From the IMG/VR virus record IMGVR_UViG_2563366918_000005: 42,002 nucleotides of DNA. The stretch is one strand, 5' to 3'. The stretch is from a virus (taxonomy: Duplodnaviria; Heunggongvirae; Uroviricota; Caudoviricetes). Both the position numbers and the translations under genes were made by a program. Under the pieces are notes generated by a model. It saw nothing but the letters and a program-made list of their open reading frames with translations. It searched no databases and was not told the origin of the DNA. This document shows, piece by piece, positions 26,270 through 29,340 of this stretch; position 1 is the first letter of the stretch; each line of letters opens with the position of its first letter.

Positions 26270-26527
26270 ATCATGAAAAACTTCAAGGTAATTAGCATGT
26301 TTGAATCGTTCAAAGAGCTGTTTTTATCTACTGCCAATACTGCCGTGAATCGAGCCAAAAACCCTGTGCTTGGTGCTTTTGTTATGTCCTGGTGCGCCTT
26401 CAACTGGAAATCAATTCTTTATCTATTTTTTAGCAAATCAAACATAATAGATAAAATTTCATATATCTCAGATAACAGCACATGGAAAACTGTTATGTTT
26501 TATCCATGCTTATCTGTAATTGCTATC

Positions 26528-26536
26528 TGCTGCCTA
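26528..26536. repeat. IS1 target-site duplication TGCTGCCTA (left copy)
   Basis: Identical 9-mer directly flanks both IS1 ends. Confidence 0.8.
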
Positions 26537-26551
26537 GGTAATGACTCCAAC

Positions 26552-27055
26552 TTACTGATAGTGTTTTATGTTCAGATAATGCCCGATGACCTTGTCATGC
26601 AGCTCCACCGATTTTGAGAACGACAGTGACTTCCGTCCCAGCCTTGCCAGATGTTGTCTCAGATTCAGGTTATGCCGCTCAATTCGCTGAGTGTAACGCT
26701 TGCTGATTACGTGCAGCTTTCCCTTCAGGCGGGATTCATACAGCGGCCAGCCATCCGTCATCCATACCACGACCTCAAAGGCCGACAGCAGGCTTAGAAG
26801 ACGCTCCAGTGTGGCCAGAGTGCGTTCACCGAATACGTGCGCAACAACCGTCTTCCGGAGCCTGTCATACGCGTAAAACAGCCAGCGCTGGCGCGATTTA
26901 GCCCCGACGTATCCCCACTGTTCGTCCATTTCCGCGCAGACGATGACGTCACTGCCCGGCTGTATGCGCGAGGTTACCGACTGCGGCCTGAGTTTTTTAA
27001 ATGGCGGAAAATCGTGTTGAGGCCAACGCCCATAATGCGGGCGGTTGCCCGGCAT
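26552..27055 (-). CDS. insB: IS1 InsB (expressed as InsAB' by -1 frameshift)
   Basis: Product …[37 protein letters not shown]… matches IS1 InsB; A6 slippery run at about 26990-27000 (minus strand). Confidence 0.85.
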
Positions 27056-27249
27056 CCAACGCCATTCATGGCCATATCAATGATTTTCTGGTGCGTACCG
27101 GGTTGAGAAGCGGTGTAAGTGAACTGCAGTTGCCATGTTTTACGGCAGTGAGAGCAGAGATAGCGCTGATGTCCGGCGGTGCTTTTGCCGTTACGCACCA
27201 CCCCGTCAGTAGCTGAACAGGAGGGACAGCTGATAGAAACAGAAGCCAC
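26974..27249 (-). CDS. insA: IS1 InsA
   Basis: 91 aa, [42 protein letters not shown]… matches IS1 InsA. Confidence 0.85.
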
Positions 27250-27304
27250 TGGAGCACCTCAAAAACACCATCATACACTAAATCAGTAAGTTGGCAGCAT
27301 CACC

Positions 27305-27313
27305 TGCTGCCTA
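27305..27313. repeat. IS1 target-site duplication TGCTGCCTA (right copy)
   Basis: See left copy. Confidence 0.8.
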
Positions 27314-27864
27314 TTACCATGGGTAAACAATATCATTAACGTATGGCAAGCAAAGCCTCTTGATAATAATGACTCAATCGAAAATCACCTGAAGGCAAGA
27401 AAAATCCAGCGTGAAACAAGACTGCAGAGGTTATTGGCTAAAAAAGATGTTACATACGACAAAGTTAAGACTGGCGCGGAAAAAGACATCCAAGAGATGA
27501 AAGAAGAGATTATTCGATCAAAGAATAGTATGGGGGAATTGACTGCCGAGTTGAAAGCTAAAGATGACGAATTGAGATCCGCCAGTGCTCAGTTAGCAGC
27601 TCTAAATCATTCATTAAAAGAGATATCGGAAACTCTTGGAAGAATGAATGAGGCATATAAGACCCTCCAAAATGATTTCGACGAATACAAACTCAAATAC
27701 CCTGAAAAATCTCAAATAAAAAGCCTTGAACTTGGCAACGGCCAAACAATTAGCAACTTTTTGGAGCAACACAACTTATCCGGATTAAAATCTGGTAAGC
27801 CAAACGTTTTTAATAACTTTGGTGTTCTATCTGGATTATCAGGTTTCGAGGATAAAAATAAAGA

Positions 27865-29340
27865 CTAAGCATATGGATCGTACTCGGTAAGCGCCTTGCC
27901 TTGCTGGTTCTGCTGCCCGGGAAGTCGCAGGCGCTTTGACACCGGGAAAGCAAACGTCAGCAGTAGCGCATCGCCTTTACCAGGCGAACGCCCAAGTCGT
28001 TCTTTGATATCTTCCTTCGGTTCGATAACGATTTTACCGTCCACGCGAACTTTGTACTCTGCCGCCGACAGATCGTCCGCTGTTTCCTGGTCATCCAGCA
28101 TCCCGCCCAACCTCAGCCATGTCTTGCATGAGTTGAACATCTCCCCGCGCTTGTTGAGCATCTGAGGGTCAGTTGACGCACCACCGAACGGAACAAGTTG
28201 CCATGTGCGCCCCCAGCCGTCACCGATTGACTTCAGACCGGTTCCGTAACCGAAGTCGATGAACACCGCGTCAGCCTGATACTGGTCTTCAAAGTCAGCG
28301 ATACGCTTCGCCATAATCAGATCGTCAGTGGTCTTGTTGCCAGTCCATAGCACCTTACTATGCAACCCCTGCCGCAGGTATATCACCGCGTCATCAACGC
28401 CTGAATATGCCGGGTCAACACCGATTATCACCGGAGCATGTGCCACCTGCGCAGCGGTTACCACCCGTTTCATTGCCTCATCAGTAAGACCGGTAGGGAT
28501 AAACTGCAATTCAGATGCATCAGGGAATATGCCGCGCACACGGATTTTAACGAAGTCGCTGTCTTCCCCGTAGTCATCAACCCATTTCTGCAACTGCTGT
28601 TTGTTAGTACCTTCCACCGTCCGGCTGTCAATCTGCGCAGTTTTCCAGCGGTGTTTGTATTTGCGGAAACATTCGCGAAAACGCCCGGTATTACGTGTAG
28701 GGTTTCCGAACGCCACCCAGATAATCTCAGTGTCTTCGTCCGTAAGCGCACCCTCAGCAACTTCCCACACCAGATCCGCAATGTTCGACGCTTCATCGAA
28801 TACCACGATGATGCGTTTGCGCTCGTTGTGTAGTCCGGCGAATGCCTCAGTGTTGTGCTCAGACCAGGGGATTGCGTCAGCTCGCCACCGCTTGTCGTGC
28901 CCAGGATCATTGCTGTACATCGCGGTAGCGGTACAGGTAAACCAGTCTTTCGTGATAGCAAGGTTCGACCACTTGATAATTTCCGGCCAGGTCTTCGTTC
29001 GTAGCTGGTTGTCGGTGTTGGCGGTCACCACGACCTTACAATCCTCGCAAGTGGACATGCCCCAGTTGATCAGCATTGAGATGAATGCGGATTTACCAAT
29101 ACCGTGACCAGAAGCACGTGCCAGCATAAGCGGCTGATAACGCGTCTCTGGATTCTGCAGGTGATCACGTATCTCTCGGAACGCATCGGCCTGCCACTGA
29201 CGTGGGCCGGTAGCATGTGCCAGTTCAGTCCCCTCTTCCCCCCACGGGAACGCATAGAGGGCATAGCCAAGCGGATCGTGAGTGAACCCTGCAATATCCT
29301 CGATTAACTGCTCTTCAGGAGATAACGCTGTATCTGTCAC
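27865..29340 (-). CDS. Terminase large subunit
   Basis: 491 aa; Walker A-like ARASGHGIGKS; GTG start overlapping terS stop; convergent with the accessory gene (4-bp stop overlap). Confidence 0.85.
   Translation of the reverse strand: MTDTALSPEEQLIEDIAGFTHDPLGYALYAFPWGEEGTELAHATGPRQWQADAFREIRDHLQNPETRYQPLMLARASGHGIGKSAFISMLINWGMSTCEDCKVVVTANTDNQLRTKTWPEIIKWSNLAITKDWFTCTATAMYSNDPGHDKRWRADAIPWSEHNTEAFAGLHNERKRIIVVFDEASNIADLVWEVAEGALTDEDTEIIWVAFGNPTRNTGRFRECFRKYKHRWKTAQIDSRTVEGTNKQQLQKWVDDYGEDSDFVKIRVRGIFPDASELQFIPTGLTDEAMKRVVTAAQVAHAPVIIGVDPAYSGVDDAVIYLRQGLHSKVLWTGNKTTDDLIMAKRIADFEDQYQADAVFIDFGYGTGLKSIGDGWGRTWQLVPFGGASTDPQMLNKRGEMFNSCKTWLRLGGMLDDQETADDLSAAEYKVRVDGKIVIEPKEDIKERLGRSPGKGDALLLTFAFPVSKRLRLPGQQNQQGKALTEYDPYA

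Follow-up and report, generated by a model that had tools for sequence, protein, structure and literature searches.

We analyzed a 42,002-nucleotide stretch of DNA from a virus of the class Caudoviricetes (IMG/VR record IMGVR_UViG_2563366918_000005; the whole stretch is called the window below) and, in it, an AT-rich antisense gene that lies between terL, encoding the large terminase subunit, and the portal gene, and that is split by a copy of the insertion sequence IS1 (26273-27868, IS1 included). We found that this gene, hereafter the cargo gene, belongs to the PHROG 4780 family, that it occupies a slot in which related prophages carry alternative genes, that its product is predicted to be a membrane hairpin followed by a very long helix and an exchangeable C-terminus, and that an operator-like dyad overlaps its promoter. 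We are close to certain of this structural and genomic part of the explanation (insertion, slot, family, architecture, and promoter with dyad). As to function, the features of the family point to a membrane-acting superinfection-exclusion or abortive-infection-like effector, to which we give a probability of about 40%. The insertion as such is routine, and the interest lies in the gene that was hit. The family is present in hundreds of enterobacterial prophages and gives a confident structural model, yet neither a relative with a known function nor a similar fold was found.

The initial annotation had described an IS1 copy with an intact 9-bp target duplication, whose removal would restore an open reading frame (ORF) of about 290 codons. 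We observed a complete element of 768 bp at 26537-27304, with imperfect inverted ends GGTAATGACTCCAACTTACTGAT and GGTGATGCTGCCAACTTACTGAT, flanked on both sides by identical copies of TGCTGCCTA. All three characteristics of the IS1 class were present (a length near 768 bp and imperfect terminal inverted repeats of some 23 bp, the insA/insB' frames, and the 9-bp duplication), and the fused product reported by the gene caller contained the Pfam domains Zn_ribbon_InsA, HTH_Tnp_IS1 and DDE_Tnp_IS1. Joining 26273-26536 to 27314-27868 gave 819 nt with a single terminal stop and a translation of 272 amino acids (aa). Therefore the in-frame restoration stood, while the length had to be corrected to 272 codons. 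The true start is probably the ATG at 26297 (Met9), which is preceded by AAGG, so that the protein would have 264 rather than 272 residues: the predicted -10 hexamer (26266-26271) would place the transcript start past the first ATG. Most homologues are 264 aa long and start at the residue equivalent to Met9, and in alignments of the upstream sequences no other allele had an ATG at the annotated first position (26273).

Along its entire length the repaired cargo gene was 100% identical to annotated, uninterrupted genes of other Escherichia coli, and because of this identity the repaired frame is no chance open frame. One of them, WP_102779111.1 in NZ_AP022222 (strain WP8-S17-ESBL-12), is flanked by the same tRNA-Arg and terL and has an uninterrupted target site. 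The window runs collinear with the prophage of NZ_AP022222, an intact relative. The two are 99.996% identical in the 26,536 nt to one side of the insertion and 99.83% identical in 14.7 kb to its other side, and IS1 with one copy of the repeat was the sole structural difference over approximately 41 kb. Thus the insertion is very recent, as had been suspected. Intact alleles, which the initial annotation had proposed to look for in related prophages, were easily found: an intact full-length copy was present in 37 of 5426 complete E. coli genomes and in many IMG/VR loci.

As it stands, the 5' fragment reads through 26 codons of IS1 and gives a 114-aa product, which only two assemblies have on record, one of them that of E. 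coli KTE177 (GCA_000351285.1). The window comes from KTE177 or a strain nearly identical to it. The IS1/cargo junction was absent from all 5426 complete RefSeq E. coli genomes. The cut falls inside the second membrane helix, after codon 88, and would destroy the protein by parting the hairpin from the stalk. At the end of IS1 we also noticed a hybrid promoter-like site (27291-27320: TTGGCA from IS1, 18 nt, TACCAT from the flank) that points into the 3' fragment. It could drive a shortened product lacking the anchor (listed ORF from TTG 27434, 144 aa).

The protein had initially been left without a known family. The family is in fact recognised, though unannotated: we obtained a full-length match to PHROG 4780 (E=7.5e-137, residues 9-272 against profile positions 1-267 of 275), and the N-terminal part also matched two more unannotated PHROGs. 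There were 177 close homologues, all named "hypothetical", in genera such as Escherichia, Salmonella, Klebsiella, Enterobacter, Citrobacter and Cronobacter. Among 1.84 billion cluster representatives, a profile search identified 292 at E<1e-10, mostly of 220-350 aa, while a search of a word-indexed database with a profile of the N-terminal domain only returned mostly fragments. Pfam and NCBIfam hold no model for the family, and in scans of 124 and 46 relatives no member had a Pfam domain in the conserved part; one member carries an added GerE domain. Further, the family's accession numbers were mentioned in no paper that we found in the literature.

Conservation of the family was bipartite, as the first approximately 165 residues are kept and the last approximately 100 are not. 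Invariant positions include R27, N30, P31, G34, W40, F43-N44-W45-K46, P78, P90-W91 and Q100-x-x-P103-x-D105, and distant members share the signature ER-x-KNP-x-x-GAF-x-FSW-x-x-FNW ... LP ... Q-x-KP. Among 51 distinct alleles, dN/dS was 0.07-0.09 in the N-terminal 157 codons and 0.25-0.45 in the tail, within allele types. The tails of different allele types could not be aligned. In a second E. coli allele type (type B), nt 1-508 were 91% identical to the cargo gene and the sequence was unrelated afterwards. Such a pattern of substitution and exchange is that of a real gene under purifying selection with a module-swapped C-terminus. Different allele types were found on the same phage backbone (portal and terL 97-100% identical), which argues that the tail does not track the packaging proteins of the phage itself.

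We modelled the protein with AlphaFold. With an alignment of 124 diverse sequences the mean pLDDT was 85.7, and it exceeded 90 for residues 11-215; an earlier model with 56 closer sequences was poorer. The model consists of helices 6-28, 31-43, 45-53, 58-68 and one unbroken helix of approximately 145 residues, 71-216. Thus the second hydrophobic helix runs without a break into the long helix, which is followed by the region swapped between alleles. We found no structural neighbour or similar fold for the modelled protein. Two transmembrane helices followed by a coiled coil had been predicted for this protein. This architecture held, and in the family as a whole both helices have the look of membrane helices; in the allele of the window only helix 74-92 is clearly hydrophobic (Kyte-Doolittle index, KD, 2.15), helix 31-53 being marginal (KD 1.1). 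In 46 diverse N-terminal domains, the best 19-residue stretch reached a KD of at least 1.6 in helix 2 in 43 cases and in helix 1 in 19. In these 46 domains the segment ahead of helix 1 has a mean net charge of +1.0, the loop one of -1.0 and the segment that follows helix 2 one of +1.3. Read with the positive-inside rule, this charge pattern suggests a membrane hairpin with both ends inside the cell, the long helix being a putative cytoplasmic coiled-coil stalk.

The prophage that carries the gene is integrated at guaA. Its terL is 98.8% identical to that of phiV10 and 94.7% identical to that of epsilon15, and its head genes include those for a Bbp16-type cement protein and a gp10 "staple". Together, these features identify it as a Uetakevirus-type (phiV10/epsilon15-like) podovirus with lambdoid-style early genes. 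The cargo gene was rightly described as an AT-rich antisense island (GC content 36.4%, compared with 48.6% for the window): the tRNA-Arg, gp3 and portal genes lie on one side, and terL lies on the other, convergent with the cargo gene and overlapping its stop codon by 4 nt. Phages phiV10, epsilon15 and TL-2011b have another antisense gene in the same gap between terL and gp3/portal. We surveyed this slot in 80 IMG/VR loci with terL ends at least 98% identical, and compared the gap in the 78 of them in which both flanks were located. Each gap contained one antisense cargo, rarely two, and there were six cargo types in the 78 loci. Therefore at least six antisense genes alternate in the terL-portal gap of Uetakevirus-type prophages, and the cargo gene is one of them.

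The most frequent cargo, in 31 of the 78 loci, phiV10 and epsilon15 included, was a 124-aa protein of family PF13876 (E=1.8e-34), a family founded by the anti-CBASS sponge Acb4 (PMC11722364). The family of the IS1-split gene, PHROG 4780, occupied 17 loci, as did a 140-aa protein (phrog_4846). A 110-aa protein (phrog_27507) was found in 6 loci, a 115-aa protein (phrog_3163) in one, and a 98-aa Tad2-like protein in one (PF11195, E=3e-24; PDB Tad2/AcrIIA7, E~1e-14). The 140-, 110- and 115-aa proteins are unannotated. Every cargo type begins just past the hairpin GCCCGGTTCGCCGGGC. The small cargos start right after this hairpin and its T7 tract, with only AAGGTGAGATT before the ATG, and share TAACACCGTGACATGTCACAAACAGCC at the end. 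The PHROG 4780 cargo has the same left boundary, but approximately 40 nt of its own that contain the promoter and the dyad. In one locus (L117) two cassettes stand in tandem, with a hairpin ahead of each. The gap thus appears to behave as a cassette-like slot for immune-evasion genes and may be useful for mining further cargo. The footprint of tRNA-Arg was present in at least 73 of the 78 loci, whatever the cargo. Half of the arginine codons of the cargo gene (4/8) are AGA; we considered whether tRNA-Arg(UCU) was part of the cargo gene unit through this link and rejected it, as the tRNA is present with any cargo.

An operator-like site had been noted at the start of the gene, and the dyad ATTACCTTAAAGGTATA is indeed present there, at 26253-26269. 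In the GenBank record of epsilon15, two sites, TTACCAAAACGGTAAT ahead of terS and ATTACCTAAAAGGTAAT ahead of gp3, are annotated as bound by the "repressor", and both share the same motif. We searched the window for TTACC-N5-GGTAA with at most one mismatch and obtained 15 occurrences, compared with 0.73 expected; none of 100 shuffled sequences reached 15. Mapped onto the annotation of the intact relative, 13-14 of the 15 are intergenic at promoter regions, and several abut or overlap promoter-like hexamers. Four of the dyads flank the helix-turn-helix (HTH) repressor gene, two of them in the interval to a cro-like gene and two downstream of the repressor gene, facing the early genes that run leftward; a further one follows cro. 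P and the next operon are separated by two dyads, terS has two at its start, and a single dyad stands in the gap from gp3 to the tRNA. Four more each precede an antisense accessory gene: the cargo gene and three others. Two pairs are spaced by 62 bp (33410/33472 and 36491/36553). Our identification of the motif as an operator is drawn from the epsilon15 annotation and these motif statistics. The same sites stand in the same places in related phages (E. coli, Klebsiella and Enterobacter relatives); the repressors of phiV10 and epsilon15 were reported to be only 42% identical (PMC9782041). The putative promoter at 25615-25652, together with its dyad, has the same arrangement as the annotated repressor-binding site of epsilon15. 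The mapped set accompanies almost all promoter regions of the prophage, those of the late genes among them; as a genome-wide set for Uetakevirus-type phages it is useful for mining cargo.

Both promoter hexamers of the cargo gene and the TACC-N5-GGTA core were kept in 32 of 36 distinct upstream sequences, with the five spacer letters varying between groups. The dyad was lost in 3 of 8 distinct sequences from foreign contexts and in 1 of 28 native ones (one-sided exact test, p of approximately 0.03, for cases that are not phylogenetically independent). This is good evidence, at the level of sequence, that the cargo gene belongs to the repressor-controlled set of the phage, with a geometry of repression and not of activation. 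Since the dyad overlaps the -10 hexamer, the gene is probably repressor-gated and not a constitutive lysogeny gene, and the overlap argues against expression in the lysogen independent of the master regulator. If the dyad is the operator of the prophage repressor, the cargo gene would be silent or leaky in the lysogen and switched on at infection or induction. We also considered the transcriptome of the LF82 prophage "Gally" as a sign of a silent slot, and dropped it because Gally is P22/HK620-like and not Uetakevirus-like. Two of the dyads lie 46-78 nt inside the 5' end of the listed terS frame (29337-30011, TTG start, 224 aa). The true start of terS is probably downstream of them, because the epsilon15 operator lies before a shorter terS.

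We also looked at the genomic contexts of other family members. In P2/186-like prophages, two distant members, of 514 and 396 aa, occupy the interval from gpA (replication) to gpQ (portal), which is the old/tin locus. This locus is a documented hotspot rich in anti-phage systems (PMC9122126), in which anti-defence genes are very rare (PMC13586616). The family is therefore found in two hotspots of opposite theme, defence in P2-like and anti-defence in phiV10/epsilon15-like prophages. Other members stand at the boundary of early and late genes in a Klebsiella podovirus, beside a ParA-like gene in plasmid-prophage-like elements, and between the replication genes and ninB (the nin region) of lambdoid prophages. 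In a collection of genome contigs, pattern matches to the family were not confirmed by tblastn, and this collection supplied no loci. Wherever the flanks could be read, the family gene stood alone; the contigs of several distant representatives were too short for this. In prophage contexts it was on the strand opposite most or all of its neighbours and had a GC content of 33-39%, compared with approximately 50%. At seven loci outside Uetakevirus a remnant of the 3' end of terL, 79-172 codons long, lies directly 3' of the gene (L004 4698-5000; L026, L038-L041, L047), in copies that now belong to lambdoid prophages. These remnants mark a transfer in which the foreign copies left the terL-portal slot with a piece of terL. 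In a collection of 50,697 phage genomes five phages had the family gene, none of them of an evidently virulent type. In the P2/186-like hotspot (L080, approximately 7840-7890) we noticed six tandem GACTCTT repeats just upstream of family member P0193.

A role in phage conflict is favoured because the gene is dispensable and mobile, combines a conserved membrane part with a swappable tail, and keeps the company of conflict genes. Among such roles, exclusion or abortive infection, which the initial annotation had already suggested, leads because of the cases in the P2 hotspot, the range limited to temperate phages, and the layout of an effector plus a variable tip. In this reading the conserved hairpin would act as effector or anchor, and recognition of a component of a foreign phage or of the host would fall to the variable tip. 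The protein would act mainly while its own phage is active, or through leaky expression, and would not be a standing defence of the lysogen. Several points weigh against this reading. An operator over the gene's own -10, if functional, argues against the classical picture, in which such a gene is active in the lysogen; under a tight operator the protein could not protect the lysogen from other phages and would act only during infection by, or induction of, its own phage. The alternative occupants of the slot that are best identified belong to anti-defence, as sponges, and not to defence. The surroundings of one distant member are those of an ordinary chromosome. Further, the dyad is kept in five foreign contexts with no second copy of the motif within 8 kb, so that it may not be read by a cognate repressor there.

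The sponges in the same slot make counter-defence a serious rival. According to it, the cargo gene would encode an early, repressor-gated protein that shields the phage from host immunity, for instance as a blocker or decoy of a membrane-associated defence effector, with a variable tail that tracks host targets. The hypervariable C-terminus agrees with this, as does the sharing of the slot with Acb4-family (31/78 loci) and Tad2-like cargos. Anti-defence genes need early expression (bioRxiv 10.1101/2024.10.15.618418), which an operator over the promoter would suit. However, the protein resembled no anti-defence family, sponges included; in particular, it matched neither the Pfam models nor the solved structures of Acb4 (PF13876) and Tad2 (PF11195). 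It has its own promoter, whereas the sponge cargos have only a Shine-Dalgarno sequence after the hairpin. Its distant relatives lie in the gpA-gpQ hotspot, where anti-defence was reported to be very rare, and the family was confined to temperate phages and prophages, never occurring in virulent phages of the 50,697-genome collection. We regard counter-defence as unlikely, though as the main rival. Tentatively, and as an unlikely picture taken as a whole, the family could be a new kind of temperate-phage membrane factor, encoded by one gene and gated by the repressor, in which a conserved hairpin in the inner membrane, a long cytoplasmic coiled-coil arm and an exchangeable tip, made only when the phage is active, would either exclude competitors or disarm a membrane-bound host defence. 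In the latter case it would be the first membrane-anchored occupant of a slot otherwise used by nucleotide-signal sponges.

It had also been suggested that the gene was selected against, i.e. that IS1 was fixed because the gene is costly or toxic and not by neutral chance. There are several independent knock-outs of the same allele type: an IS21 insertion at nt 220, a slip in a run of five G giving a 163-aa allele, and a 57-aa form and others of approximately 100 codons or less. However, the IS1-split allele is found in two assemblies only and in 0/5426 complete genomes, while intact alleles are far commoner (the intact cluster has 228 member sequences, and 51 of 54 distinct IMG/VR alleles have at least 200 codons). 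The cargo gene is under purifying selection. IS1 favours AT-rich targets, and a prophage gene silenced by a repressor would decay neutrally. Thus the suggestion received no direct support, and we consider it rather improbable. As for the slip, deletion of one G makes the frame read ATG GGG AAT TGA, and the 163-aa form (P0027) has 29 member sequences on 7 contigs, which suggests a recurrent slip or a spreading null allele.

A part in host takeover or in the lytic programme of the phage itself (lysis timing, division block, membrane remodelling, or anchoring in replication or packaging) would fit the presumed repressor-gated expression and the adjoining packaging genes. It is improbable, since the gene can be dispensed with (it is missing from phiV10, epsilon15, ZX5 and the majority of relatives), the allele type is independent of the portal or terL type, the prophage has a separate complete lysis cassette (holins, endolysin and a DUF2514 protein), and the gene moves among podovirus, lambdoid, P2-like and plasmid-prophage-like types. 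A moron of the classical lysogenic-conversion kind, active in the lysogen to the benefit of the host (envelope or stress fitness, or virulence) and not of phage conflict, would account for a lone AT-rich gene opposite the lytic operons with moron features (its own promoter-like site, two upstream hairpin terminators, and GC of 36% vs 49%), but is highly improbable given the operator dyad over the -10, a protein with no secretion signal, adhesin or enzyme domain, and tail swapping of a modular kind more typical of conflict genes.

We compared the cargo protein with known systems. SieB of lambda and P22 is also a single temperate-phage protein with N-terminal membrane helices and a cytoplasmic remainder, acting in phage-phage conflict. 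SieB differs in that it lacks a stalk made of one long helix and that its gene belongs to the early-left operon, not to a gap between packaging genes. We obtained no match to the SieB family (PF14163) in Pfam scans at E up to 1, including the scans of 124 and 46 relatives. The likeness to the cargo of the P2 gpA-gpQ locus (old, tin and later systems) lies in position, as two distant members of the PHROG 4780 family occupy exactly that slot; no domain is common to the family and Old, Tin or any PADLOC model. In PADLOC-DB v2 only coiled-coil segments of DndD, LmuB, PbeC and JetC matched, with E no better than 4e-7 and at most 27 bits. The Acb4-family and Tad2-like proteins share with the cargo gene the slot, the antisense orientation and the left boundary hairpin. 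They are small (98-124 aa) and soluble, with ordinary GC and without their own promoter, whereas the cargo protein has 264 aa and is predicted to be membrane-anchored, and its gene is AT-rich, has its own promoter and operator-like dyad, and shows no sequence similarity to them.

With RexB, AbiZ and the transmembrane effectors of CBASS, Thoeris and Pycsar the cargo protein can be compared through its predicted short membrane hairpin, the one part of it that could plausibly be an effector. When transmembrane proteins occur in defence loci, they are generally interpreted as suicide effectors (PMC9122126). Abortive-infection membrane effectors pair with a separate sensor or signal-making enzyme, whereas the cargo gene is a single gene, with no ligand-binding domain and no partner gene in the contexts seen. 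Rz-type i-spanins likewise have a membrane anchor followed by a long coiled coil. They differ in having one transmembrane helix, a periplasmic coiled coil and an outer-membrane lipoprotein partner, and in lying in a lysis cassette. For the cargo protein the charges predict a cytoplasmic stalk and there was no partner gene, so that it does not qualify as a spanin; the lysis genes (holins, GH19 endolysin, DUF2514) are approximately 23 kb away.

The features of the cargo gene, its neighbours and the dyads are collected in the table. We found no terminator downstream of the cargo gene.

Table. Positions in the window of the cargo gene, the IS1 copy, adjacent features and operator-like dyads.
Feature	Position	Strand	Remarks
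Putative rightward promoter TTGACA-17-TACCTT	25615-25652	+	overlapped by dyad ATTACCTTTCAGGTAAG; directed towards tRNA-Arg and cargo gene; weak consensus match only
tRNA-Arg, anticodon UCU	25974-26050	+	ARAGORN; Rfam 73 bits
Terminator-like hairpin 3' of tRNA-Arg	26094-26129	+	
Conserved hairpin GCCCGGTTCGCCGGGC followed by T7	26214-26229	+	left boundary of cargo cassette
Cargo gene sigma-70-type promoter ATGACC-17-TATAAT	26243-26271	+	predicted; 10/12 consensus matches
Operator-like dyad ATTACCTTAAAGGTATA	26253-26269		TACC-N5-GGTA core; overlaps spacer and -10 of cargo promoter
Cargo gene, 5' fragment	26273-26536	+	N-terminal helix, helix 1, most of membrane helix 2
Target duplication TGCTGCCTA, left copy	26528-26536		codons 86-88 (Cys-Cys-Leu)
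IS1 insB'	26552-27055	-	ORF 167 aa
IS1 insA	26974-27249	-	ORF 91 aa
Target duplication TGCTGCCTA, right copy	27305-27313		9 bp, identical to left copy
Cargo gene, 3' fragment	27314-27868	+	end of membrane helix, conserved WQAKPLDNNDSIEN motif, long helix, variable C-terminus
G5 run	27538-27542	+	G5-to-G4 slip gives 163-aa allele elsewhere; slip inferred from sequences
terL (large terminase subunit)	27865-29340	-	right boundary of slot
HTH repressor gene	35849-36433		dyads on both sides
Dyad positions	3659, 6684, 7064, 8105, 25637, 26254, 29933, 29951, 33410, 33472, 35394, 35731, 35779, 36491, 36553		TTACC-N5-GGTAA, at most one mismatch

The prophage has a second antisense accessory block among the tail genes, at 6775-8788 (+), with a small gene, a gene for a BRO-N protein (anti-repressor-like) and one for a DUF4760 protein. 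Each of these genes has an operator-like dyad upstream, beside a promoter-like -10. Just past the lysis end of the prophage, at approximately 1220-1680, we observed an IS200C transposase gene, which is present both in the window and in the intact relative (L174 44076-44534).

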